A stretch of DNA of 64,000 bases from an uncultured Candidatus Rokubacteria bacterium (GTDB taxonomy: Bacteria; Methylomirabilota; Methylomirabilia; Rokubacteriales; CSP1-6), in contig CAVZOE010000007.1 of NCBI GenBank assembly GCA_963776725.1, positions 127,592 to 191,591 of the forward strand, given 5' to 3'. This document shows positions 3,289 through 44,611 of the stretch, piece by piece; within the stretch, counting starts at the first letter, position 1; each line of letters begins with the position of its first letter. The notes beneath the pieces are model-generated. The model was given only the letters and a program-made list of their open reading frames with translations. It ran no database searches and was not told where the DNA came from. The position numbers were made by a program, and so were the translations under genes.

Positions 3289-4590
3289 CTAGATCACACC
3301 CTCCTCGGCGAGCGCCTTGATCTCCTGGGAGGACATCCCGAGCAGCTCGCCGTACACGTACTCGTTGTCCTCGCCGTAGCACGGGCGCGCCGCGGTCGAT
3401 GCGCCCGCCGATGTACGCCGGGCTCTCGCTCAGCTTGACCGGCACCTCGGCCAGCGGCCAGCGCCCGATCTTCGTGCCGGTCACCTCGGTCAGCCACGAG
3501 AGCGCGGCCAGCTGCGGATCGTGGTCGCAGCGGTCCTCCGCCGTCTGGCACACGCCGGCCGGCACGCCGGCCTGCTGCAGGGCGAGCATCGTCTCGTAGG
3601 CGTCGCGCGATCTCGTCCACTCGCGCGACGAGCGCGTCGAGCGCATCCTGGTGCGCGAGCCGCGCCGCGAGATCGCTGAAGCGCGGCGTCGCTCGCCCAC
3701 TCCGGATGCCCGGCGACCTCGGTCAGCGCGCGCCACTCGGCGTCCGTGAAGCAGGCGATGGTGAGCCAGCGATCGTCGCCGGCGCACGGATAGACGTTGT
3801 GCGGCGCCGCCGGCTTGTACGGCGAGCGGTTGCCGTAGCGTGACCAGATGCGTCCGTTGGCCGACCAGTCGAGGATGGTGGTGCCGCTGATGAAGAGCCC
3901 GACCTCGGACTGCGAGGCGTCGATCCACTGCCCTTCGCCCGTCCGCGCGCGATGGAAGAGCGCGGTGAGCATCGCCAGCGCGAAGCTGTAGGCGCCCATC
4001 CAGTCGAGGTACGAGTAGCCCCAGCCGGCCGGCATCGCCGGCTCCGGCAGTCCCGACATCTCCGACAGAGCCGGCGAACGAGTTCGCGATCGGACCCACG
4101 GTGCGAAAGCGGCCGTACGTGCCCTGCGCGCCCATGCCCGACTGCTGGACGTAGATGATGTCCGGCTTGATCGCGCGCAGCGCGTCGTAGCCGAGGCCCC
4201 AGCTGTCGAGCACGCCCGGCGAGAAGCCTTCCGCGACGACGTCCGACATCGCCACCAGGCGCCGCGCGATCTCCAGGCCCTTCGGATGCCGCACGTTCAG
4301 CGAGATGCCGCGCTTGCCCGGGTTCTTGTTGTTGAACTGCCCGCCCATGTCGGGATCGGTGACGCCGGGCAGCGGCGCCGTGGCCTGCGTCGCGCGCGGC
4401 GCGACCGCCGACCGGCGCCATCGCGGCCATGCGCGTGTCCGGGTGGCTCTTCAGCTCGACCTTGATGCTCTCGGCGCCGAACGCGCTCAGGAACCGCGTG
4501 CCGCCGGCCGAGGCCAGGAACCACGTGAAGTCCAGGATGCGGATGCCGTGCAGCGGAAACGGCTTGCCGCGGGGCGAGAGCCCCTCGTCG
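3289..4590 (-). pseudogene. CoA-transferase family III (CaiB/BaiF-like) gene, copy B. Multiple apparent frameshifts; boundaries approximate.
   Basis: CaiB-like segments occur in three different frames (KPFPLHGIRILDFTW..., WGYSYLDWMGAYSFALAMLTALFHRARTGEGQWIDASQSEVG, C-terminal ...YVYGELLGMSSQEIKALAEEGVI). Stop at 3289-3291 in the last frame. Confidence 0.6.
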
Positions 4591-4599
4591 TGCGGCGGC

Positions 4600-5894
4600 C
4601 GCGCGGAGGCGTCGATCACCGGCAGGTCGGCGATCGCGGCGGCAGCATCACGGTCTTGGCGTCCTCGTTCAGCAGCGGCGCGCGCCGGCCGACCGACCAC
4701 GACGTGCCGGTCGCCGAGCCACTTGCTCGTGGCGTAGCGGAAGGCGCGGCCCAGCTCGGGATGCTCGACGTCCGTGCAGCTCTCGCGCGCGAGCCAGTGC
4801 GGATCGATGGCGTTCTCGTGCGGCTTGCGCAGCGGCGCCCAGAGCATGCCCGCCTCCTGGGCTTCGCGCCACGGCACGTTGTCGTAGGTGAAGGCGCGCA
4901 CGAAGCGCTGCACGGCCTCCATGCCGTGATCGCGCTTGGCCGTGCTCGGGCCCGGTGCCCGGAACGAACCGTCCGCCCTGCGGCACCGCGGCCTGTCTCC
5001 GCGTCGAGGCCGGCCTCCATGCCGTAGCGCTCGAGCAGCGCGACGAGCCGCTCCGTCTCGCCGGGGCGCGTGCCCAGGTTCGCCATCACCCAGCGGCCGT
5101 CCTTGGTGTGCACGATGGACGGATGCGGCGAGATGGTCTCGCGCGCGTGACGGCAGGTCTGGCGCAGCACCGGCGCGCGCCGCATCACCCACGTCATCAG
5201 ATCGACCTCGGTGGATTTCGCCACCGCCTCGTGGATCGCGCACGACACGATGCTGTCCCTTGCCCGTGCGCCAGCGATAGAGCAGCGCGGCGACGATCGC
5301 CAACGCGAGCTGCTCGCCGGCGATGTGGAAGGCGTGCCACATCTGCGGCGCGATCGGCGGCAGATCGTAGTTGCCGTCGGGCGCGGGATCGTAGCCGCAG
5401 TTCATCATCACGCCGCCGAGCGCCAGGTGCACCAGGTCCGAGCCCTTGAAGTCGGCCCACGGGCCGTCGTCACCGAACGGCGACACCCGCGCGACGATCA
5501 GCGCGGGAGACTGCTGCATCAGCGCGTCCGCGCCCAGCCCGTAGCGCGTCGAGCTCACCTCGCGGCGTCGACTCCAGCAGCACGTCGGCGGTGGCGACGA
5601 GCGCGCGGAAGCGCTCCCGGTCGTCCGCCTGGTCGCAGGTCGAGCACGATCGAGCGCTTGCCGCGGTTGTACTGCCAGAAGAACAGCGAGCGCTCGGGAT
5701 CCTCGCGGTCCTGGTAGAAGGGCCCGATGCGGCGCGTGGGGCTGCCGCCGGGCGGCTCGACCTTGATCGACGTCGGCGCCCAGGCCCGCCAGCGTCAGCC
5801 CGCAGTACTCCGCCTGCTCGTCGGCCAGCTCGATGACGCGGATGCCAGTGAGAGGACCTCGGCGGGGCGCGACGCTGCCGGCACGGGCTTCCAT
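4600..5894 (-). pseudogene. CoA-transferase family III (CaiB/BaiF-like) gene, copy A. Multiple apparent frameshifts; boundaries approximate.
   Basis: N-terminus MEARAGSVAPRRGPLTGIRVIELADEQAEY... carries the CaiB LxGxRVxxL motif. Later segments (PIAPQMWHAFHIAGEQLALAIVAALLYRWRTGKGQ, ...VEHPELGRAFRYATSKW, RAPLLNEDAKTVM) lie in other frames. Confidence 0.55.
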
Positions 5895-32832: not shown

Positions 32833-33065
32833 CACCAGAGACCTCCTTCTGGCTCGAGGATCTCGCGCCGCGCGACGTCCGTCCAATGCATAAACCTGAC
32901 CCCACCCATCAGCGATGGTGATGCATTGGGGCGTACACACCTCACCTGCGGCATCGGCGCCTCAGCGCTCGCACCCGGCGAGTGATTCAAGCGATTGATT
33001 CTAGATGGGTCCATCCTGGTACGTGCGGTGCACCTGCGGCGCCGGGGATTTCCAAGGAGAGCGCA

Positions 33066-34505
33066 ATGACGCGACTCGTCTGGCTGGTGCTGATTGTGTT
33101 CCTGGCCGCGTGCGATGGGCGCACGCCGAAAGTCTCGGATCCGTACGACCCGGCGAGGATGGACCTCAAGCCGAAGCCAGCGCGCGTGACGAACACGGCG
33201 GGGACGGGACCCTTTGCCGCGGGGAACGCGCTGTCGACGACGGTGGTGCTGAAGCCACTCGATCCGGCGCCGGTCAAGGAGGTCCGGCTCGACACGGTCC
33301 ACAAGGTCATCGAGATCGCGCCCGGGGTGAAGTTCAGCGCGTGGACGTTCGGCGGCCAGGTGCCCGGACCCACGGTCCGCGCGCGCGTCGGGGACCGTAT
33401 CCGGTTCACGATGACGAATCGTACCGCCGAGACCCTGCCCGGCGTCAGCCTGACGGCCGCGCCGATGATGCACTCGATGGACTTTCATGCCGCGATGGTG
33501 TCGCCCCAGGACAAGTACCGGTCGATCGCGCCGGGGCAGACGATCGAGTTCGAGTTCACGCTGAACTACCCGGGCGTGTTCATGTACCACTGCGGAACGC
33601 CAATGATCCTCGAGCACATCGCCTCGGGGATGTATGGCGCGGTCGTGGTCGAGCCGGCGACCGGCTACCCGACGAAGGTCGATCGCGAGTACGTCATCGT
33701 CCAGAGTGAGTTCTACACCAAGCCTGATCCCGAGCGCCGCAAGGCGGACGGCGTACCGCTTCACGTCCTCGATGGCGCCCGTCTGCGGGCGTCGCAGCCG
33801 ACCTACACGCTGTTCAACGGCGTGCACAACGGGATGGTGAAGCAGCCGCTCGCGGCGAAGGCGGGCGAGCGGGTACGACTGTACGTCCTCAACGTGGGAC
33901 CGAGCAAGACGTCGAGCTTCCACGTGGTCGGAACGATCTTCGACCGGGTATGGATGGAGGGCAACCCCGACAACCAGTTCCGCGGGATGCAGACCGTACT
34001 GCTGGGCTCGTCGAACAGCGCGATCGTGGAGTTCATGATCCCCGAGGACGGCGCCTACATCATGGTGGATCACCACTTTGCCAACGCCTCCCAGGGCGCC
34101 ATCGGGCTCATCTCGACGACGGCGAAGCCGGCCGAGGCCGATCTCGAACACCACAACATCCCGGCCACGCCGGTGCCCAGTGATCCTGGCGCCCTGCAGG
34201 GGAAGCTCGACTTCGAGAGCAAGTGCCTGGCGTGTCACTCCGTCGGCCAGGGCCGAAAGCTCGGCCCCGATCTGGCCGGCGTGACCAAGCGGCGGAATGA
34301 CGCGTGGCTGTCGCGCTGGCTGAAGTCGCCCGAGAAGATGCTGGAAACGGATGCCGACGCCAAGGCCATGCTGAAGGAGTACAACAACCTCCCGATGCCG
34401 AACCAGAGCCTCTCGGACGCCGAGGTCCGCCAGTACTTGCAGTACTTCCACTGGATCGATGCCCAGCCTACGGGTACGGTGACCTCCAGTGGCGCCGGGC
34501 ACTGA
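33066..34505 (+). CDS. nirK: Copper-containing nitrite reductase NirK with a C-terminal mono-haem cytochrome c domain; lipoprotein signal.
   Basis: Lipobox LAAC. Type-2 Cu motif HSMDFHAA. Type-1 Cu motif YHCGT...ILEHIASGMYG (C-x7-H-x4-M). C-terminal CLACHS haem site. ATG 33066 with AGGAGA RBS. Confidence 0.85.
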   Translation: MTRLVWLVLIVFLAACDGRTPKVSDPYDPARMDLKPKPARVTNTAGTGPFAAGNALSTTVVLKPLDPAPVKEVRLDTVHKVIEIAPGVKFSAWTFGGQVPGPTVRARVGDRIRFTMTNRTAETLPGVSLTAAPMMHSMDFHAAMVSPQDKYRSIAPGQTIEFEFTLNYPGVFMYHCGTPMILEHIASGMYGAVVVEPATGYPTKVDREYVIVQSEFYTKPDPERRKADGVPLHVLDGARLRASQPTYTLFNGVHNGMVKQPLAAKAGERVRLYVLNVGPSKTSSFHVVGTIFDRVWMEGNPDNQFRGMQTVLLGSSNSAIVEFMIPEDGAYIMVDHHFANASQGAIGLISTTAKPAEADLEHHNIPATPVPSDPGALQGKLDFESKCLACHSVGQGRKLGPDLAGVTKRRNDAWLSRWLKSPEKMLETDADAKAMLKEYNNLPMPNQSLSDAEVRQYLQYFHWIDAQPTGTVTSSGAGH

Positions 34506-35896: not shown

Positions 35897-37357
35897 ATGA
35901 CTCGACATCGGGGTCGATACGTGGGAATCGTGTTGGTTCTTGCCGCGCTGGCTGGCGGCTGGCTCGATACCTCGCCAGCGCGTGGACAGAGCGGTGACCG
36001 GCAGCGCGTGTCGGTCTTCACGGCCGACAACGAGTCGGGCGCGGCCCAGACGATCAGCGTGAACGGCGGACCGGTGGTGGACGAGGCCAACCCGTTCTTT
36101 CTGGACCTCGGCATCAACGGCCGTCGCTGCGTGACCTGCCATCAGCCCGGTGAAAACATGACGGTGAGCGCGGCGGGCCTTCAGGACCGCTTCCGCGCCA
36201 CCCGCGGGACGGACCCGATCTTCCGCACGAACGACGGGTCGAACTCGCCGCTGGCCGACGTCTCGACCACTGACGCGCGCCGTGCGGCGTACAGCATGCT
36301 GCTGCGCAAGGGCGTGATCCGCGTCGGTCTCTCCATCCCGACCACCGCCGAGTTCGAGCTCGTGGCGGTCCGCGACCCGTACGGCTACGCGGGCCACAAC
36401 GCCAACAACAACGAGCTCTCGCTCTTTCGCCGCCCGCTGCCGGCGACCAACCTGGGCTTCCTCAGCACGGTGATGTGGGACGGCCGCGAGACGCTTCAGA
36501 GGGGATCGGCGGCGGCGATTCACTTCGATCTCGACGACCAGGCCAACAGCGCCACGCAGGGCCACGCCCAGGCGCCCAGCCCGATCGACCAGGCCACGCG
36601 GGATGCGATCTTCGAATTCGAGACGGGGTTGTTCACCGCCCAGATCTTCGACAACCGGGCGGGCAAGCTCGATTCCGGCGGCGCCGAGGGTGGTCCGGAC
36701 TCGCTCTCCCTGCAGCCGTTCGTCTTCGGGGCCAACGATCCGCTCGGCTGCGACGTCAACGGGGCCAACTGCAATCCGGCGAACGCGGTATTCGACCCCA
36801 TCGTCTACACCGAGTTCGACGCCTGGGCGGGCCTGAGCGGCACCGACCGCAATCGGGCCCGCGCCTCCGTGGCGCGGGGCCAGGCCCTCTTCAATACGTT
36901 GCCGATCCCGATCAGAAACGTGGGCGGCATCAACGACGATTTCAAGGTTCCGGTCGTCATGGGAACCTGCACGACCTGCCACGACACCCCGCACGCCGGC
37001 GACCACTCGGTGCCGGCGCCGCTCAACATCGGCATCGCCGACCCGCCGGCCCGCGATGGCCTGAACGCCTTTGGGCTTCCAGTCGGTGACATGCCCGTCT
37101 ACAAGCTGCGGAACAAGACGACGGGCGAGATCAAGATCGTGACCGATCCCGGGCGGGCGCTCATCACCGGCTTGTGGAAGGACGTGGGGCGCTTCAAGGG
37201 CCCGATCCTGCGCGGGCTGGTCGGCCGGGCGCCGTACTTCCACAACGGCTCGGCCACCACCCTGGCCGACGCCGTGAACTTCTACGACGTGCGCTTCGCC
37301 CTCAACCTGACCCAGCGTCAGAAGGACGACCTGGTCGCCTTCCTCCACTCGCTCTAG
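35897..37357 (+). CDS. Di-haem cytochrome c peroxidase-like protein (CCP/MauG superfamily), secreted.
   Basis: Signal peptide and two CxxCH motifs (CVTCHQ, CTTCHD). Confidence 0.65.
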   Translation: MTRHRGRYVGIVLVLAALAGGWLDTSPARGQSGDRQRVSVFTADNESGAAQTISVNGGPVVDEANPFFLDLGINGRRCVTCHQPGENMTVSAAGLQDRFRATRGTDPIFRTNDGSNSPLADVSTTDARRAAYSMLLRKGVIRVGLSIPTTAEFELVAVRDPYGYAGHNANNNELSLFRRPLPATNLGFLSTVMWDGRETLQRGSAAAIHFDLDDQANSATQGHAQAPSPIDQATRDAIFEFETGLFTAQIFDNRAGKLDSGGAEGGPDSLSLQPFVFGANDPLGCDVNGANCNPANAVFDPIVYTEFDAWAGLSGTDRNRARASVARGQALFNTLPIPIRNVGGINDDFKVPVVMGTCTTCHDTPHAGDHSVPAPLNIGIADPPARDGLNAFGLPVGDMPVYKLRNKTTGEIKIVTDPGRALITGLWKDVGRFKGPILRGLVGRAPYFHNGSATTLADAVNFYDVRFALNLTQRQKDDLVAFLHSL

Positions 37358-37408: not shown

Positions 37409-39010
37409 TCACGGATTCGCCGCGAGGAACGCGCGCGCCTCCGCCGTCTCCGGCCGCGGGCTCCCCTGACCAGCCAGCTTCACGAGCGCGGTGAAGTACT
37501 GCTTGGCCTTCGCCTTGTCGCCGCTCCGGGCGGCCGCGGTGGCGGCGCCGTAGTAGCCGCGGTAGCGCTCGGGCTCGCGCAGCTGCGAGGTCTCGAACTC
37601 CTTCAGCGCCTCGGCGGGGCGCTTCTGCTCCAGCAGCATCTCGCCCAGCAGCTCGCGCGCGGGCAGCAGGCGGGCGGGGGTGACGATGTGCTTCTCGCTC
37701 TTGTCCTCGATGTCCGCCGCGCGGCGCATGAGGCCGAGCGCCTCGTCGGCCTTGCCCTGTGCGTGCGCCGCCCAGGCCGCGGTGGCCAGCCGGCTCACCT
37801 CGATCTCGGTGGCCCAGTACTCGCTCTTCGCCGTCTTCATGGCGTCGCGCAGCCGCCCCAGCTCCTCGGCCTCCTTGTCCGCCGCCGCGGCGTTCCCGGT
37901 GCGTGCGGCGCCGAGCCCGCGGGCGAAGTACGTCATGGCGACGGTGAAGGGAAACTGGCTCGGCCGGGGCTCGAGGGTCATCGCCTGCTTCCAGTCACCG
38001 CGCTCGACCGCATAGCGCGCCGGTATCGCTGCCTGGGCGTAGGGGCCGGCGAAGCGCATGGAGGCACCGGTGACGGCCGCGGCCGTCTCGACCATCCGGC
38101 TCGCATCGGTGTCACGGGCGAGCTGTAGCTCGGCGTACACCATGTAGTCCATGGCGTGCAGCTGCTCGTCGATGTCCTTTTCCTGCTTGGCCGCTTCCGC
38201 CGAGCGCTCGTTGGTGGCGATCGACTCGCTCCACGAGCCGACGCGCGTGAAGATATGCGAGGGCATGTGCAGTGCGTGGGGCGCCGACGGCGCGATGCCC
38301 GCATAGCGTCGCGCCGCCGGCAGTCCCTTGGAGGCGATGGGCGGGGCGTCGTAGCTGTGGATCAGATAGTGCGCGACGCCGGGATGGTCCGGATACTTGG
38401 CGAACTCCTTCTCGAGGATTTCGGTCGCCTTGAGATAGGTCGCGTAGGTCTGATCGGCGAGCGATTGCGTGGCGGCCAGGTAGAGCGCGTAGAAGATCTG
38501 CGCCTCGTCGTCGTTGGGATAGCGCGCGGCCAGCGCCTCGAACGCCTTGGCCCGGTTGGCCTGACGCGTGCGCTCGGGCCGGTTGGCCCAGTCCTCGTAG
38601 TAGGCGGCCACGGCCTCGATGTAGTCGCGCTCGCGCGGGGTCTTCGCTCCGATCTTTCGCCCCTCGTCGATGGCCGCCTGCGCGCGCTGGGCCCCTTGCG
38701 GTGAAGACCCGACGCCGGCGAGCGGATTGGACATCAGGAGCGCGGCGATGCCCCACGTCGCGATCGCGCAGGACGGATCCTGGGCCAGCACCTCGCGAAA
38801 GGCCTTCTCCCCCTCGCCGTAGCGGAAGGAGTGCAGCATGGCGACGGAGCGCTGGAAGTTGGCCTGCACCGCGGGGCCGCAGGAGTTCTGGAAATTCACC
38901 GTGCCGAGCTGATCGGTGGACTGGCCCTGGGCCGGCCGACCCGGCGTGATGAGCAGAACGGAGAGCACGAAGGCGAGCAACGCCCAAGCAATGGTGCGGT
39001 ATGTGTTCAT
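37409..39010 (-). CDS. Secreted TPR-repeat protein.
   Basis: Signal peptide MNTYRTIAWALLAFVLSVLL, then TPR-like helical repeats. Confidence 0.6.
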   Translation of the reverse strand: MNTYRTIAWALLAFVLSVLLITPGRPAQGQSTDQLGTVNFQNSCGPAVQANFQRSVAMLHSFRYGEGEKAFREVLAQDPSCAIATWGIAALLMSNPLAGVGSSPQGAQRAQAAIDEGRKIGAKTPRERDYIEAVAAYYEDWANRPERTRQANRAKAFEALAARYPNDDEAQIFYALYLAATQSLADQTYATYLKATEILEKEFAKYPDHPGVAHYLIHSYDAPPIASKGLPAARRYAGIAPSAPHALHMPSHIFTRVGSWSESIATNERSAEAAKQEKDIDEQLHAMDYMVYAELQLARDTDASRMVETAAAVTGASMRFAGPYAQAAIPARYAVERGDWKQAMTLEPRPSQFPFTVAMTYFARGLGAARTGNAAAADKEAEELGRLRDAMKTAKSEYWATEIEVSRLATAAWAAHAQGKADEALGLMRRAADIEDKSEKHIVTPARLLPARELLGEMLLEQKRPAEALKEFETSQLREPERYRGYYGAATAAARSGDKAKAKQYFTALVKLAGQGSPRPETAEARAFLAANP

Positions 39011-39231
39011 TCTGACTCCTCGTGTGACGGTGGCGTCCACGGTGCTGGCTGCGGGTGACCCACGTGCCCGCCGCTAGCCCTGAGAGCACTTACCATGGCA
39101 CTGAATCCTGGCCAATTCCACCGCCTCTCCCTTTTTGGCGTGTCGGGGATTCCCCCACTATCCATGAGGGCAGCGGCAGGGTACAAGCGGCACGAGAGCG
39201 TCGTCGCGGGATACCCGGGGCGGAGGAGACC

Positions 39232-40530
39232 ATGGCACGAGCGGCCGGCACGAAACCGAAGCAATGGACCATCATGGTCTACCTCGCCGGTGACAACAAT
39301 CTCGATAGCGCCGGCGTCGCCGATCTCGCCGAGATGAAATCCGTCGGGTCCACCGACCAGGTCACGATCGTCGCGCAGTTCGACCGATCCGGCCGCAACA
39401 GTGTGACCAATCGGTACCTTCTCCGGAAGGGAACGACACTCGCCGAGGACCTCGTCACCGCGCTCGGGGAAACCAACACTGGCGATCCCGCCGTCCTCGC
39501 CGATTTCGTCACGTGGGCCGTCACCACGTATCCGGCCCGGCGCTACATGCTGGTGATCTGGAATCACGGCTCCGGGTGGGACGACTCCAACCTCTACCAG
39601 GACACCTACTTCAGTGGGGCGGCGCCACCCGTGATCCGGAAGGGCCGGGTGATCAGCGCTGCACGTTCGGCCACCCCGATCGAGCCGGTCCGGATGGGCA
39701 CGGCGCGGGCGGCGGTCAAGCGTGCCCGTCGCGCCCTGTTTCAGCCCACGGTCATCTCCATGGTGTCGTCCCGGGCCATCGCGTTCGACGATCAGGCCAA
39801 GGACTTCCTCGACAACATCGAGCTCAAGCGGGTGCTCACCGGCATCCGCCGGCGCCTCGAGCAGAAGATCGACATCCTCGGATTCGACGCGTGTCTGATG
39901 AGCATGGTGGAGGTCGCGTACCAGATCCGCGACTCGGTCAACCTGACATGTGGGTCCGAGGAGGAAGAGCCCGGCGACGGCTGGCCGTACGACACGATCC
40001 TGAAATCACTCACCGCCCGTCCCTCGATGACGCCGCCCGACCTGGCCAAGGTGATCGTGGATCGATACCTGGCGTCGTACAAGCCGCGCGATGGAGTCAC
40101 CCTGGCCGCCGCGAATCTGGCGGGCATCGGACCGCTCGTGGACGCGGTCAATCAGCTCGGCCGCGCGCTCACCCCCCTGCTCACCGATGCCGGCGCCCGC
40201 AGCACGGTCATCGCTCTTCGATCACAGGTCCAGGAGTACACCGCGCCGTACGACCAGTACTGTGACCTCGCGGATCTCTGCGATCTGCTGGTCGAGCGAG
40301 TCGCCAATCCTGGCCTCGGGCGGGCGTGTCAGACGGTCCACGCCGCTCTCGGCAAGGTCATCATCGCCAGCGGGGCCAAGGGCCCCCGCGTCGCGCATTC
40401 GCACGGGATCTCCGTCTATTTCCCCAAGAAGACCGTGTCACCCCTGTACTCGACCCTGGACTTTGCGAAGCGACGCGGATGGGCCGCCTTCATCGATGCC
40501 TACGTCCGGAGCGTGGGACGGCGCCGCTAG
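39232..40530 (+). CDS. Clostripain-family (peptidase C11) cysteine peptidase, cytoplasmic.
   Basis: WTIMVYLAGDNNLD. Catalytic His in VIWNHGSGW and Cys in GFDACLMS. GGAGGAG RBS before ATG 39232. No signal peptide. Confidence 0.8.
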   Translation: MARAAGTKPKQWTIMVYLAGDNNLDSAGVADLAEMKSVGSTDQVTIVAQFDRSGRNSVTNRYLLRKGTTLAEDLVTALGETNTGDPAVLADFVTWAVTTYPARRYMLVIWNHGSGWDDSNLYQDTYFSGAAPPVIRKGRVISAARSATPIEPVRMGTARAAVKRARRALFQPTVISMVSSRAIAFDDQAKDFLDNIELKRVLTGIRRRLEQKIDILGFDACLMSMVEVAYQIRDSVNLTCGSEEEEPGDGWPYDTILKSLTARPSMTPPDLAKVIVDRYLASYKPRDGVTLAAANLAGIGPLVDAVNQLGRALTPLLTDAGARSTVIALRSQVQEYTAPYDQYCDLADLCDLLVERVANPGLGRACQTVHAALGKVIIASGAKGPRVAHSHGISVYFPKKTVSPLYSTLDFAKRRGWAAFIDAYVRSVGRRR

Positions 40531-40567
40531 CGCACATGCCTGTGCCACCCCGAGGAGGAGACGCGCG

Positions 40568-42355
40568 ATGCCTGATCACCTGTCCATCCTGTGCGTGCAT
40601 GGCATCGGCCATGGTGATGTCGATCCAGCGCTGATCCCGTCCTGGCGCGACGCGATCACCGCCGATCTGCAGCGCTGGAAGCCGGGCCTGGCGGTCGACT
40701 TCAGCTTCCTCAGCTACGACGACGAATTCGACCACGCCCCGCTCAATGCCCTCACGTACGCGGAGGCGGTGGCCAAGCTGGCGGCTAGCGGGATCGTCCA
40801 CGGTATCGGTGACCTGCTGCCGGGCGCCCGCGGGATCTTCGATTTCCCGGACGAGGTCCGCTGGACGGCCGGGATGATCGCCCAGTGGGCGACCGAGGAG
40901 CGTCTGCGGGCGCGACTCCGGACCAAGGTGCTCGACGCGCTGGCGACCGCGCGGGCCGACGTGGTCTGTGCGCACAGTCTGGGCTCGCTCGTCTGCTACG
41001 ACGCCTTCCAGCGCAGCCGCGGCGCGCTGGCCGATCGCGCCCTGGTGACGCTCGGGTCCCAGATCGGCAACCCGTTTGTGCGGGACTGCTTCGCCGGCCG
41101 CATCGAGCCGCTCGGCGCGCGCATGTGGTACCACCTCTTCAATCCTGACGATCGCGTGTTCACCGCCGCGCTGCGCGTCGAGGCGACGAACTTCGTTCAG
41201 ATCGAGGCGAAGTTCGACCGGCCCAATGACATCCTGAACCATGATCCGATCTGGTATTTCAATCATGCCAACAGCCAGAACCGGGTGTGGCTGGATCTCT
41301 CGGGGGTCCGGCCGCCACGGGCGCTGACCCGCGACGTCCGGACCACCCGGGTGTTGCAGTCTCGACCGAGCCGCCGCGCGCTCCTCGTCGGCATCAACGC
41401 GTATCCGAATCCGGCCAACCGGCTCGAGGGTTGTGTGAACGACGTGTTCCTGATGAGCGCGGTCCTGCAGGAGTGTGGCTTCGAGCCGGAAGAGATCCGC
41501 GTGGTGCTCGACGAGCGGGCGACGACCACCAACATCCTGGAACGCTTCCACTGGCTCCTCGATGAGGTGAAAGACGGCGACGAGCGCGTGCTGTTCTACT
41601 CCGGCCACGGCGCCCAGATTCCCGCTTACGGCGCCCACGAGGAGATCGACCATCTCAACGAGTGCCTGGTACCCTACGATTTCGACTGGAGTCCCGATCA
41701 CGCGATCACCGACAAGCAGTTCGTGACGTTCTACAGCCAGCTGCCCTACCGGAGCCAGTTCGCGGCCATCTTCGATTGCTGTCACTCCGGCGGGCTCACG
41801 CGGGAGGGCGGGATGCGCCCGCGCGGCATCGACCCGCCCGACGACATCCGCCATCGGGCGCTCCGGTGGAACCTCGCGCTCGAGATGTGGGAAGAACGCC
41901 CGCTGCCGTCGCCGAATCGTTCGCTCGCCCAGTCACGCGTCGGCCCCGAGTATCTCGGCACGAGCGGCGCCACCTTCCGCATCGGTCGCGCCGTCGGGCT
42001 GCGCGGCCTGCCAAACCGGGTCTACGACCGCGAGTGCGCGGCGCTGGGACATCGTGGCCCTTACCTGCCGATCATCGTCGAGGCGTGCCAGGAACAGGAG
42101 CTCTCGTACGAATACCGCGACGGCGCGACGTCGTACGGCGCCTTCACGTACAGCCTGGCCAAGGAGCTCCGGCGCTCCCGGCAGGCCGGACGCAACCCGA
42201 GCTTCCGGACGCTCGTGCGATTGACCACCGATCGACTTCACGCGCTCAACTACGAGCAGACACCGACCCTCGTCGGCCCGGCGGCCCTTCTGGGTCAGCC
42301 CATCCCCTGGATCGCGCAGCGGCCGACGCCCCGGGCCGTGCGCCGGCGGTCCTAG
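40568..42355 (+). CDS. Fusion protein: N-terminal alpha/beta-hydrolase (GxSxG esterase/lipase-like) plus C-terminal caspase/metacaspase (peptidase C14) domain.
   Basis: Esterase motifs ILCVHGIGHGD and CAHSLGS. Caspase His in FYSGHGAQ and Cys in FDCCHSGG. GAGGAGGAG RBS, 37 nt after the C11 gene stop. Confidence 0.8.
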   Translation: MPDHLSILCVHGIGHGDVDPALIPSWRDAITADLQRWKPGLAVDFSFLSYDDEFDHAPLNALTYAEAVAKLAASGIVHGIGDLLPGARGIFDFPDEVRWTAGMIAQWATEERLRARLRTKVLDALATARADVVCAHSLGSLVCYDAFQRSRGALADRALVTLGSQIGNPFVRDCFAGRIEPLGARMWYHLFNPDDRVFTAALRVEATNFVQIEAKFDRPNDILNHDPIWYFNHANSQNRVWLDLSGVRPPRALTRDVRTTRVLQSRPSRRALLVGINAYPNPANRLEGCVNDVFLMSAVLQECGFEPEEIRVVLDERATTTNILERFHWLLDEVKDGDERVLFYSGHGAQIPAYGAHEEIDHLNECLVPYDFDWSPDHAITDKQFVTFYSQLPYRSQFAAIFDCCHSGGLTREGGMRPRGIDPPDDIRHRALRWNLALEMWEERPLPSPNRSLAQSRVGPEYLGTSGATFRIGRAVGLRGLPNRVYDRECAALGHRGPYLPIIVEACQEQELSYEYRDGATSYGAFTYSLAKELRRSRQAGRNPSFRTLVRLTTDRLHALNYEQTPTLVGPAALLGQPIPWIAQRPTPRAVRRRS

Positions 42356-42406: not shown

Positions 42407-42548
42407 GCGGGTCGGCGTGGATCTCCTCAACCTCGGGACCGGCGTGGGCCGGACTCGCTGGCGGCCTGCATCGCCGGCGAGGGGGGGCTCGGCCAGACAA
42501 CGATCATGAAGATGAAGAAGCTCGACATCGACGTGCTGAAGCGAGCCT
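42407..42548 (+). pseudogene. Small ORF, possibly frameshifted at a G7 homopolymer.
   Basis: MRVGVDLLNLGTGVGRT... in one frame and ...IAGEGGLGQTTIMKMKKLDIDVLKRA* in another, joined across GGGGGGG at about 42456-42462. Confidence 0.25.
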
Positions 42549-42570
42549 GAGAGCGGGATCGCCCGTCTCG

Positions 42571-43675
42571 ATGAACCTGCCCTTCGCTCCACCTCTCGCG
42601 CCGATGTTGTCCAGCGCCGCCGACGCCTTGCCTGGCGGCGAGGGATGGCAGTTCGAGCCCAAGTGGGACGGCTTTCGAACGCTGGTGTTTCGCGACGGCG
42701 ACGAGATCCTACTGCAGAGCCGCGACGAGAAGCCCATGAACCGATACTTCCCGGAGCTCATCGCCCCACTGGCCGCCACGCTATCCGAACGCTGCGTCGT
42801 CGACGGCGAGATCGTGATCGTCGGGGTCGGCGGGCTCGACTTCGAGGCCCTGCTCTTGCGCATCCATCCCGCCGCGTCGCGGGTGAAGCTGCTCTCCGCG
42901 CAGGCGCCGGCCTCGTTCGTGGCCTGGGATCTGCTCGCGCTGGGCGACGATGACCTGCGCAACGCGCCGCTCGCCGTGCGGCGCGAACGGCTCGAGCACG
43001 TGCTGGCCGGCGCGGCGCCGCCGGTGCACCTCTCGCCGGCTACGCGCGATCGAGCGCTTGCGGCGGACTGGTTCCGCCGCTTCGAGGGCGCCGGGCTCGA
43101 TGGTGTCATGGCAAAGCGTCTCGACGCGCCCTATCGCGCCGGCGAGCGCACGATGATCAAGGTGAAGCACGAGCGCACGGCTGACTGCGTGGTCGCCGGC
43201 TTCCGCTGGCACAAGAAGGGCGCCGGCACGATGATCGGCTCGCTGCTGCTCGGCCTGTACGACGACGATCACACGCTCCACCATGTCGGGGTCGCCGCGG
43301 CGTTCACGGCCACGGTGCGCAAGCAGCTCGTCGTCGAGCTGACGCCGCTGCGCGCGCGACGCGCTCGAAGACCATCCATGGCGGGACTGGGCCGTGGCAC
43401 AGGAGGAAGCCAGCGCGAAGGGACAGCGGCTGCCCGGTGCGACCAGCCGGTGGAACCGCGGCAAGGATCTGAGCTGGGAGCCGCTCCGGCCGGAGCGCGT
43501 CTGTGAGGTCGCGTACGACCACATGCAGGGGACTCGGTTCCGACATGCCGCGCAGTTCGTGCGCTGGCGTCCAGACAAGCGCCCGCAGGACTGCCGCTAC
43601 GATCAGCTGGAAGTCACGCCCGCCTACGAGCTGGAGCGCGTTTTCGGCGCGCGCGACGCCGGCCGCCGGCCCTAG
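42571..43675 (+). pseudogene. ATP-dependent DNA ligase (LigC/LigD ligase-domain type). One apparent frameshift near 43340-43400.
   Basis: Adenylation motif FEPKWDGFR (KxDG). The C-terminal OB region ...RFRHAAQFVRWRPDKRPQDC is in a second frame. Confidence 0.75.
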
Positions 43676-43775: not shown

Positions 43776-44611
43776 GTGACGACGTGGAGCTCCGGCGCGA
43801 GCCGGCCCGAGCAGGACGGCCTGCAGTACCACATCCGCTGCCGCCCGGGTGACGTCGCCCGCTACGTGCTCCTGCCCGGCGATCCCGCTCGCGTGCCGCT
43901 GATCGCCGCGCGCTGGGCCGAGGCGACGCGAGATCGCGGTCGAGCGCGAGCACGTCACCTTCACCGGGCGCCTGCGCGGATGGCGGCCCCATCTCCGCCT
44001 GCTCCACCGGCGCCGGCGGACCGTCCACCGCGAGCGCGCTCGAAGAGCTCATCGCCATCGGCGCCGACACGTTCATCCGCGTGGGGACCTGCGGCGCCAT
44101 CCAGCGCGAGATCGAGTGCGGCGACGTGATCATTCACACCGCGGCCGTGCGCCTGGACGGCACCAGCCCGCAGTACGTGCAGATCGAGTACCCGGCGGCC
44201 GCGCACTACCTCGTGGTCCTGGCCCTGATCCAGGCGGCCGAGGAGCTCGGCGTGCGCTACCACCTCGGCGTGTCGGCCTCGACCGCGTCGTTCTACACGG
44301 GGCAGGGACGTCCGGGCTGGCAGGGCTACACCCAGGGCTGGACCGAGCAGATCGTGCCCGATCTGCAGCGCGCCGGCGTGCTGAACTTCGAGATGGAGGC
44401 GGCCACCATCTTCACGATGCTCGGGCTCTACGGCCTGCGCGGAGGCAGCGTCTGCGCGGTGGCCGCCAATCGCGTCACCGACACCTTCAAGAAGGACGGC
44501 GTCGAGACCTCGATCGACGTGGCCAATCGCGCGGTACGGATCCTCCAGACCTGGGACGCCGAGGTCGCCGCCCGCGGCAAGACGACCTGGTATCCCGGGC
44601 TCCACCGTTGA
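43776..44611 (+). pseudogene. Nucleoside phosphorylase (PNP/UDP family 1), about two frameshifts.
   Basis: N-terminus ...[24 protein letters not shown]... and C-terminal body ...VLNFEMEAATIFTMLGLYGLRGGSVCAV... lie in different frames. Confidence 0.65.

Follow-up and report, generated by a model that had tools for sequence, protein, structure and literature searches.

Proteases of the caspase superfamily have been found in bacteria as partners of alpha/beta-hydrolases. In vWA-MoxR conflict systems the caspase domain always occurs with a neighboring alpha/beta-hydrolase gene (Kaur et al. 2020, eLife, PMC7159879), while in Lysobacter capsici the protease LcCaspase cuts a separate protein, LcHydrolase, near its lid, between Arg73 and Gly and between Arg117 and Gly (Evans et al. 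2025, bioRxiv, PMC12642450). The cut LcHydrolase kills E. coli, its substrate being unknown, and the caspase-like proteases of the same work are fused to diverse sensors; a stand-alone caspase gives phage defense without any effector (PMC12642450). Here we describe a gene in which hydrolase and protease form one polypeptide. It lies in a window of 64,000 nucleotides (nt), to which all positions below refer, from an uncultured Candidatus Rokubacteria bacterium of the phylum Methylomirabilota (contig CAVZOE010000007.1 of GenBank assembly GCA_963776725.1, positions 127,592 to 191,591, forward strand), and its product of 595 amino acids (aa) combines an N-terminal alpha/beta-hydrolase with a C-terminal metacaspase and carries no sensor domain. 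By analogy, this fused, sensor-less form looks like a one-piece variant of the known protease-activated hydrolase pairs. We have found no description of a cis-fused, sensor-less hydrolase-metacaspase in the literature, and a term search of the 2012 survey of prokaryotic metacaspases (PMC3501461) reveals no alpha/beta-hydrolase fusion and one GDSL-lipase case only. Pfam-based surveys of prokaryotic metacaspases could not register the architecture, because its N-terminal domain is devoid of a curated model.

The identities of the two domains can be regarded as practically certain. The initial annotation, drawn from the sequence, had reported an esterase/lipase domain fused to a metacaspase at positions 40568-42355 of the plus strand, and this segment is exactly one open reading frame (ORF) containing the four motifs quoted at the time: VHGIGHGD (H11-G12), CAHSLGS (S137), FYSGHGAQ (H347), and AIFDCCHSGG (C404/C405). 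In an alignment of 77 fused homologs, S137, N192, D195, H225, D292, H347, C404, and C405 are invariant in 76-77 sequences. Since this invariance holds despite an identity to the window protein of only 43-81% in the N-terminal domain (54-86% in the metacaspase domain), the motifs are not a product of chance. Coordinates of all these features are collected in table 1.

For the C-terminal half, the proposal of a metacaspase with a His/Cys dyad is borne out by PF00656 (Peptidase_C14), the sole Pfam domain of the protein, which covers aa 269-569 with an E value of 6.6e-27 (95.1 bits vs. a cut-off of 21.4), and by metacaspases in PDB, which match with E values from 1e-13 to 9e-22. The best of these, Arabidopsis metacaspase-9 (AtMC9), aligns end to end over aa 268-568 (E 9e-22), running on through ACQEQELSYE...GAFTYSL to residue 568 and thus including a p10-like region; type I metacaspases align only over the p20 part. 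The generic 'caspase' model of PADLOC also matches this domain (1.8e-20), spanning 5-160 of its 453 positions. The dyad of H347 (SGHG) and C405 (DCCHSG) is invariant in 76 of the 77 homologs, the remaining one having a gap, and C289, D292, S345, and D403 are invariant as well. From motif spacing, we take these four residues to be the equivalents of C92, D95, S156, and D211 of TbMCA2, and the roles of D403 and C405 to be those of TbMCA2 D211 and C213. By the same analogy, the acidic S1 pocket predicts cleavage after Arg or Lys. D361, D371, and D373, which might bear on a Ca2+-dependent activation or autoprocessing, are also conserved. Judged from its sequence, this is a bona fide metacaspase domain that looks catalytically competent.

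With metacaspases (MEROPS C14B), in particular those of p20-linker-p10 form such as Arabidopsis metacaspase-9 and -4 (PDB 8a53 and 6w8s) and TbMCA2 (PDB 4afr), the domain shares the C14 membership, the His/Cys dyad, the acidic C-x-x-D/S-G-H/D-x-C pocket, the p10-like region, and a long p20-p10 segment with a conserved Arg just past the catalytic Cys. It differs in being preceded by an enzymatic domain and not by a prodomain rich in Pro or of zinc-finger type, and in the p20-p10 insert itself, which is unrelated to the linker of plant metacaspases and strongly conserved in sequence, with many invariant residues (PPDD, RH, W434, MW, and others). The AlphaFold2 model of the full-length protein is poor, with a predicted local distance difference test (pLDDT) of 68 and a predicted template modeling score (pTM) of 0.48, the insert falling to pLDDT values of 30-58; the arrangement of the domains and the insert are consequently not interpretable. 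Membership of gasdermin or EACC1 systems was considered and rejected, since no such neighbor was found and the model of the EACC1-associated caspase (NCBIfam NF047832) scores 38.9 bits, far short of its cut-off of 140.

The N-terminal domain is more elusive. Its 268 residues up to the metacaspase return no Pfam or NCBIfam match even at E<=10, and a PDB profile search with the hydrolase domain is likewise empty at that threshold. Used as a query, aa 1-268 retrieve 87 relatives, many of them fused to PF00656, and an alignment of 37 of these relatives was the input for an AlphaFold2 model of the hydrolase domain, the kind of check that the initial annotation had proposed. The model is confident (pLDDT 85, pTM 0.84) and displays six strands alternating with helices in a three-layer alpha/beta/alpha fold, the sheet being largely parallel. 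Together with the invariant candidate triad it upholds the fold that had been suggested, though not the length: the domain spans about 250 residues rather than 290, followed by an 18-aa linker. A helical insert (aa 61-128) separates the second strand from the nucleophile strand and holds a loop of low confidence (aa 77-92). The H11-G12 pair is found in every fused homolog whose sequence covers that region, and in one variant homolog, P0061, S137 and H225 have been lost together.

Remote homology points in the same direction. Matches of family members to Pfam models below threshold (Abhydrolase_6 in 5 of 15, Ser_hydrolase in 4 of 15, plus Abhydrolase_8, Hydrolase_4, and DUF676) all belong to the AB_hydrolase clan, and hhalign superimposes AHS137LGS on AHS77MGG of Bacillus subtilis LipA (E 4e-4, probability 34%). 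The minimal lipases and esterases (LipA, PDB 1i6w; rumen Lip_vut1, 6nkc; YdeN-type Ser_hydrolase, 1uxo) have in common with our domain the six-stranded core, the VHGIG and AHS-x-G motifs, and the Ser-Asp-His order, while differing from it in that the latter possesses a helical insert of about 70 residues before the nucleophile strand and no Pfam model reaches threshold. The resemblance to the DDHD domain of Nir2 and intracellular phospholipase A1 (PLA1; PDB 9jyx) is structural only: the hydrolase domain has no Pfam match to the DDHD model and no sequence match to the DDHD/intracellular PLA1 family. Foldseek matches against PDB were not relied on, being weak (E ~1e-3, TM 0.25-0.4) and mixing flavodoxin-like azoreductases with minimal lipases. 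The N-terminal domain may thus be described as a minimal Ser-Asp-His alpha/beta-hydrolase that looks catalytically competent and represents a family still lacking a curated model, is lipase-like by remote homology only, and may act on lipids, esters, or thioesters.

Table 1. Features of the fusion gene, its product, and the adjacent peptidase gene (positions in the 64,000-nt window)
Feature	Position	Strand	Basis and remarks
Fusion gene	40568..42355	+	single 595-aa ORF: alpha/beta-hydrolase + metacaspase
Shine-Dalgarno-like GAGGAGGAGA	40552..40561	+	6 nt 5' of ATG; read off the sequence
Minimal alpha/beta-hydrolase domain, aa 1-250	40568..41317	+	six strands; helical insert aa 61-128
H11-G12, oxyanion-hole 'HG' at end of first strand	40598..40603	+	invariant or nearly so; placed by the model
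R88-G89, candidate proteolytic licensing site in loop of helical insert	40829..40834	+	conservation and low pLDDT; cleavage predicted
Nucleophile elbow A135-H-S137-L-G139	40970..40984	+	S137 invariant, 77/77; strand 132-136, then helix 138-149
D195, candidate catalytic acid after strand 186-191	41150..41152	+	invariant, 77/77; model topology
H225, candidate catalytic His after strand 209-213	41240..41242	+	invariant, 77/77
Interdomain linker, aa 251-268, Arg-rich	41318..41371	+	pLDDT <50 at aa 251-265 of full-length model
Peptidase_C14 metacaspase, aa 269-569: p20, conserved ~90-aa insert, p10	41372..42274	+	Pfam, PADLOC, and PDB matches
S345-G-H347-G, catalytic His and S1-pocket Ser	41600..41611	+	invariant
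D403-C-C405-H-S-G, catalytic Cys405 and S1-pocket Asp403	41774..41791	+	invariant
p20-p10 insert, aa ~410-500	41795..42067	+	conserved sequence, poorly modeled
R419-G420, candidate autoprocessing site in loop after catalytic Cys	41822..41827	+	99%/99% conserved; cleavage predicted
Peptidase_C11 (clostripain-like) gene, co-oriented	39229..40530	+	37-nt gap upstream of fusion gene; Pfam E 8e-51

The architecture is not rare but widespread in soil bacteria. In a scan of 185,579 species genomes, one per species, 270 loci were confirmed, and among the best 80, which were examined, 78 have the hydrolase directly fused to the metacaspase in the same order, within the same uninterrupted ORF of about 590 aa. 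Carriers span about a dozen phyla, including Proteobacteria (among them cultured Pseudomonas, Bradyrhizobium, Cupriavidus, Sulfuriferula, and Uliginosibacterium), Methylomirabilota, Acidobacteriota, Nitrospirota, Chloroflexota, Gemmatimonadota, Planctomycetota, Verrucomicrobiota, Myxococcota, and others. Among the culturable carriers are Pseudomonas mandelii 6A1, Bradyrhizobium liaoningense and B. stylosanthis, Cupriavidus sp. 2TAF22, and Sulfuriferula multivorans. A full-length search yields in addition over 120 metagenome clusters of proteins of about 590 aa with 60-85% identity, and an exhaustive profile search of 1.84 billion representatives (clusters at 50% identity) identifies 253 clusters when E is limited to 1e-30 and 2122 when it is limited to 1e-3, most of them with proteins of 580-640 aa. 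With more than 120 clusters and 270 loci the architecture is to be considered common, and the rarity initially ascribed to it has to be abandoned in the face of at least 78 species genomes and hundreds of metagenome clusters. It has nevertheless escaped functional annotation: the clusters bear names such as 'caspase family protein' (NCBI) and 'metacaspase-1' or 'hypothetical protein' (JGI), with esterase appearing in two clusters. The initial view that the combination was functionally uncharacterized is therefore correct for the fusion, known only as 'caspase family protein', and incorrect for the pairing of its domains, of which the split form has been described (PMC7159879, PMC12642450).

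This distribution also bears on whether the fusion might be an artifact, with separate hydrolase and caspase genes merged by a sequencing frameshift. Just downstream, a DNA ligase gene and a PNP_UDP phosphorylase gene are indeed each split over two frames; against this, the intact ORF in 78 genomes and more than 120 metagenome clusters, as well as an identical 595-aa protein on a separately assembled Logan contig, refute the explanation, to which we attach virtually no credence. The gene is preceded by a putative ribosome-binding site that is strong, and its GC content at third codon positions (GC3, 0.872) equals the window median, which speaks against a foreign composition. On inspection, no signal peptide or transmembrane segment is apparent in the protein, the first beta-strand of which begins already at residue 4; its predicted location is cytoplasmic.

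Some relatives are considerably longer. In six of them (P0252, P0302, P0255, P0236, P0318, and P0336) the hydrolase-C14 core is extended to 1050-1350 aa by N-terminal phospholipase C (PLC)-like Phosphoesterase, C-terminal phospholipase D (PLD)-like (PLDc_2), or FAD_binding_4/ALO oxidase domains. The conserved order of the fusion and its persistence as the constant core of these longer proteins indicate that the two domains work as a unit. Extensions of 100-140 aa without assigned domain are present at the N-terminus of P0216 and P0229. A split form, in which a stand-alone hydrolase would lie beside a separate caspase, was sought and rejected, as the stand-alone homologs do not adjoin a caspase. 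Neither do the two 'caspase-less' loci inspected constitute a second architecture: in one (L060) the long ORF is spurious and the locus encodes the stand-alone hydrolase P0020, while the other (L058) has a sub-threshold alpha/beta-hydrolase match only. At an Usitatibacter locus (L083), P0020 is overlapped by 4 nt by an upstream 404-aa gene (3790-5004) with weak matches to the metallo-beta-lactamase (MBL) fold, and no protease is found there. MBL-fold and alpha/beta-hydrolase proteins have both been described as protease-activated effectors (PMC12642450).

In functional terms, these observations raise a question: How would one domain of this protein govern the other? The initial annotation had suggested that the protease could regulate the hydrolase, for example by releasing it as a lipase through autoproteolysis. 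Regulation by the protease is plausible and has gained support from the precedent of LcCaspase and from the conserved R88-G89, though the cleavage itself is something we infer. Release through the linker is not favored, because the linker has no conserved site and a conserved R-G lies inside the hydrolase domain; R251 is the sole conserved residue of the linker (basic in 94% of the homologs), which is without R-G. Of the hydrolase site, R88 is present in 96% and G89 in 83% of the homologs (otherwise Ala or Ser), surrounded by variable residues, and the pLDDT is below 50 at aa 84-89 of the hydrolase model. The second site, R419-G420, falls within a low-pLDDT stretch (406-443) of the full-length model. 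Caspases and type II metacaspases undergo processing in the loop that follows the catalytic Cys. Among the 77 homologs, R88 and R419 are the only conserved basic residues (>=85%) followed by a conserved Gly.

Our interpretation, which we put forward as tentative, is that the fusion may be a self-contained, sensor-less, cis-fused, proteolysis-gated hydrolase effector. The protein would be made in a latent form and might be triggered either by Ca2+ or stress, to which the metacaspase would respond, or else by the neighboring protease of family C11 (clan CD). Once triggered, the metacaspase would mature by cutting its own loop between R419 and G420 and then, in cis or between subunits, would cut between R88 and G89 in the lid-like helical insert. 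This latter cut might unlock the hydrolase on an ester substrate, probably a lipid, and end in growth arrest or cell death, as with proteolysis-gated defense or stress effectors. The adjacent second peptidase, where present, could either act ahead of the fusion as its activator or be another zymogen that the metacaspase licenses. The model for such a scheme is the LcHydrolase/LcCaspase pair, with which the fusion shares a hydrolase of unknown substrate, lipase-like by remote homology only, that is obligatorily linked to a protease of the caspase superfamily cutting, or here predicted to cut, after Arg, and a conserved R-G in a loop beside a helical lid-like element before the nucleophile strand. 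The differences are that the Lysobacter proteins are encoded by neighboring genes, whereas here they form a single polypeptide with the hydrolase first, and that here no sensor (STAND, WD40, VMAP) is attached or adjacent, the setting is not a defense island, and a variable peptidase gene is often adjacent.

This interpretation needs to be qualified in several respects, all of which weigh against it. The hydrolase domain has just one conserved R-G, versus two in LcHydrolase; the next conserved basic residue, R/K98, precedes RWTAGM, the most conserved motif of the family, which would be odd to excise, and the linker of the 77 homologs offers no conserved cleavage-like site. Both cuts are predicted from R-G conservation and loop position, and the likeness of the hydrolase to LcHydrolase is drawn from the published description. 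STAND, WD40, and vWA-MoxR are absent from the fusion protein, the window, and the 25 most frequent neighbor families listed for 76 loci, and a sensor-less state is unlike every protease-effector module described. The fusion is absent from the plasmids of PLSDB, and its hydrolase domain from the phages of INPHARED and the viral contigs of IMG/VR; PADLOC-DB v2 matches only the generic 'caspase' model and no system-specific component. Absence from mobile elements and the generic match together mean that a defense-island setting is not supported. Moreover, the true stand-alone hydrolases P0040 and P0020 have no protease neighbor, and hence the hydrolase domain can function without a protease. The window itself has a housekeeping character (oxidases, transporters, DNA ligase), with which the GC3 of the gene, equal to the window median, is in keeping.

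Several of these points would fit a constitutive, bifunctional housekeeping or stress enzyme devoid of proteolytic gating, with each domain active independently. Such an enzyme would not serve regulated cell death or defense but, for example, the turnover of acylated or lipid-modified proteins, membrane remodeling, or responses to nutrients and stress. The gene context and the typical codon composition, the exclusively chromosomal location (away from plasmids, phages, and viral contigs), the strong purifying selection evident in 60-85% identity over many soil lineages, and the existence of stand-alone hydrolases without any protease all agree with such a role. It would not account, however, for the conserved R-G motifs in flexible loops, and it sits uneasily with a patchy spread over many phyla (270 loci in 185,579 species genomes), a variable gene context, a repeated association with another peptidase of varying type, and fusions to PLC- and PLD-like domains that look effector-like. 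We therefore deem this explanation somewhat unlikely, while giving it serious weight.

The roles of the two domains could also be reversed with respect to the proteolysis-gated effector considered above. The hydrolase domain would then act as a sensor, in the manner of the plant receptor-hydrolases D14 and KAI2. By binding or hydrolyzing a small ester, be it a signal, a molecule from phage, or a lipid arising from damage, it would undergo a change of conformation that switches on the metacaspase as the true executioner, possibly with the neighboring peptidase. The described metacaspase effectors are normally coupled to a sensor domain (PMC12642450, PMC7159879), and the fusion has no other candidate for this function; a stand-alone caspase defends against phage without an effector (PMC12642450), and the metacaspase domain is the more conserved of the two (54-86% vs. 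43-81% for the hydrolase). In type I metacaspases a regulatory prodomain sits at the N-terminus, the place held here by the hydrolase. Yet the ligand is hypothetical, the strictly invariant candidate triad and oxyanion motif suit a turnover enzyme at least equally well, the further lipid-directed domains of the longer relatives point to an effector, and in the systems described the alpha/beta-hydrolases paired with caspases act as effectors. A sensory hydrolase is, in our opinion, unlikely.

Additional evidence comes from the genes next to the fusion. In the window, the C11 gene immediately upstream (table 1) encodes a protein with intact catalytic His and Cys, as the PDB alignment to a clostripain-related protein covers WNHGSGW and FDACLMS; its N-terminus, upon inspection, lacks a signal peptide, in line with a cytoplasmic location, and it has no PADLOC match. 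Around 100 Arg/Lys-rich residues separate its catalytic His and Cys. The same pair of C11 and fusion gene recurs on an independent contig, and C11 is adjacent on the same strand in nine further loci, upstream of the fusion in some clades and downstream in others (the order being reversed in Burkholderiales-type loci). When the ORFs lying on the same strand within 300 nt of 76 fused genes were scanned with Pfam, the four commonest neighbor families were all peptidases: C11 (nine loci), C14 (seven), C70 (three), and astacin (three). PG_binding_1 neighbors, with two occurrences, are level with many unrelated families, and no other family occurs more than twice; tblastn adds three C14 neighbors slightly farther off. 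After collapsing lineages at 80% identity, 18 of 49 have a peptidase neighbor, and 10 of 26 when collapsing at 70%, corresponding to binomial p values of ~5e-7 and ~1e-4 against an assumed background of 10%. The enrichment is suggestive, because the background (6-10%) is assumed and lineage collapsing affects the result; so is, in turn, the recurrent link to a second peptidase. All-versus-all clustering of the ORFs from the 80 loci reveals no other conserved partner, the only further recurrent cluster consisting of generic ABC ATPases.

The peptidase neighbors are quite diverse. Sulfuriferula and relatives (L021, L027, and L028; e.g., L028 7843-9012) have a C70 protease resembling AvrRpt2 in this place, Burkholderiales and Lysobacterales (L056, L061, and L064; e.g., L064 4860-5660) an astacin-like metalloprotease, and locus L004 (5090-5902) a stand-alone caspase of about 270 aa. 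In Pseudomonas (L052/L053, 7791-8495) the neighbor is an endolysin-like PG_binding_1+CHAP protein, the domain of which starts from residue 3 and leaves no room for a signal peptide. A different situation is seen in a Gallionella metagenome-assembled genome (L026 8016-8819), where a second stand-alone hydrolase (VIHGV/AHSLGS) without Pfam match lies 222 nt downstream of the fusion, a possible paralogous partner.

Two clan-CD proteases side by side are also encountered in type III CRISPR systems, with SAVED-CHAT and PCaspase, and in the TIR-activated caspase of type IV Thoeris (10.1101/2024.10.24.620036). The pair in the window combines C11 with C14, other fusion loci combine C14 with C14, and no CRISPR, SAVED, or TIR component is nearby; among the Pfam families of the neighbors inspected, none of STAND, vWA-MoxR, TIR, or CRISPR was seen. 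By analogy, the arrangement suggests that one clan-CD protease of a pair may process the other. Pursued further, it could make the module a cascade, in which either the hydrolase itself would sense danger through a lipid or ester, or Ca2+ or membrane damage would act on the metacaspase, and the metacaspase would then license its own hydrolase together with a neighboring pro-peptidase. We judge this extension to be distinctly unlikely as a whole. If true, soil bacteria would possess a hitherto unrecognized minimal death pathway of the type 'initiator plus executioner', working without an NTPase sensor.

The combination of a lipase with a protease is, on the other hand, a classic one for toxins, and the weak Foldseek matches include a lipase effector of the type VI secretion system (9cys) and Legionella lpg2422. 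The fusion might accordingly be imagined as an exported toxin or virulence factor sent to competitors or hosts, for example through a secretion system, with the neighboring gene as an accessory or immunity factor. However, those matches are weak (E ~1e-3, TM 0.3-0.4), the fusion protein has no signal peptide, Pfam detects no trafficking domain (PAAR, VgrG, Rhs, or other) in the protein or its immediate neighbors, and no conserved small gene of immunity type adjoins the fusion. The neighboring peptidases, too, seem to be without signal peptide, judging from the N-termini of the window C11 and of those at L004, L064, and L053. An exported toxin is consequently a very improbable identity for this protein.

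The remainder of the window contains genes for a multicopper oxidase, a LuxR regulator, a RoxA-like cytochrome c peroxidase, a tetratricopeptide repeat (TPR) protein, a DNA ligase, a phosphorylase, and ABC transporters. Redox and periplasmic genes lie upstream of the fusion, encoding a multicopper oxidase joined to a cytochrome c domain (32982-34505, plus strand), a homolog of RoxA-like di-heme cytochrome c peroxidases with sub-threshold Pfam matches (35897-37357, plus strand), and a TPR protein of 543 aa, the N-terminus of which resembles a signal peptide (37409-39040, minus strand); RoxA-like neighbors are present in two related loci as well. Downstream, the ATP-dependent DNA ligase is split over two overlapping frames of the plus strand that encode the adenylation domain (42502-43506) and the C-terminal OB domain (43394-43675), reflecting either a frameshift error or a pseudogene. 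The PNP_UDP phosphorylase appears similarly divided (43776-44129 and 44081-44611, plus strand): its second ORF matches from profile position 77, and the upstream ORF, in another frame, resembles the N-terminus of the phosphorylase. Two adjacent split genes suggest indel errors, or pseudogenes, in the assembly.

In concluding, the fusion may be considered against the growing recognition that effectors gated by proteolysis form a principal theme of bacterial immunity and regulated death, one that parallels the caspase-driven pathways of eukaryotes. The modules of alpha/beta-hydrolase and caspase described so far consist of two genes tied to elaborate sensors, while the fusion is simpler and encoded in one chain, and the repeated occurrence of another peptidase beside it suggests that protease cascades extend beyond the CRISPR-linked cases. 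Given its presence in hundreds of environmental bacteria, including culturable members of Pseudomonas, Bradyrhizobium, Cupriavidus, and Sulfuriferula, the fusion provides a tractable single-protein system for studying how a metacaspase may license a hydrolase, what this hydrolase targets, and which trigger would set a sensor-less module in motion.

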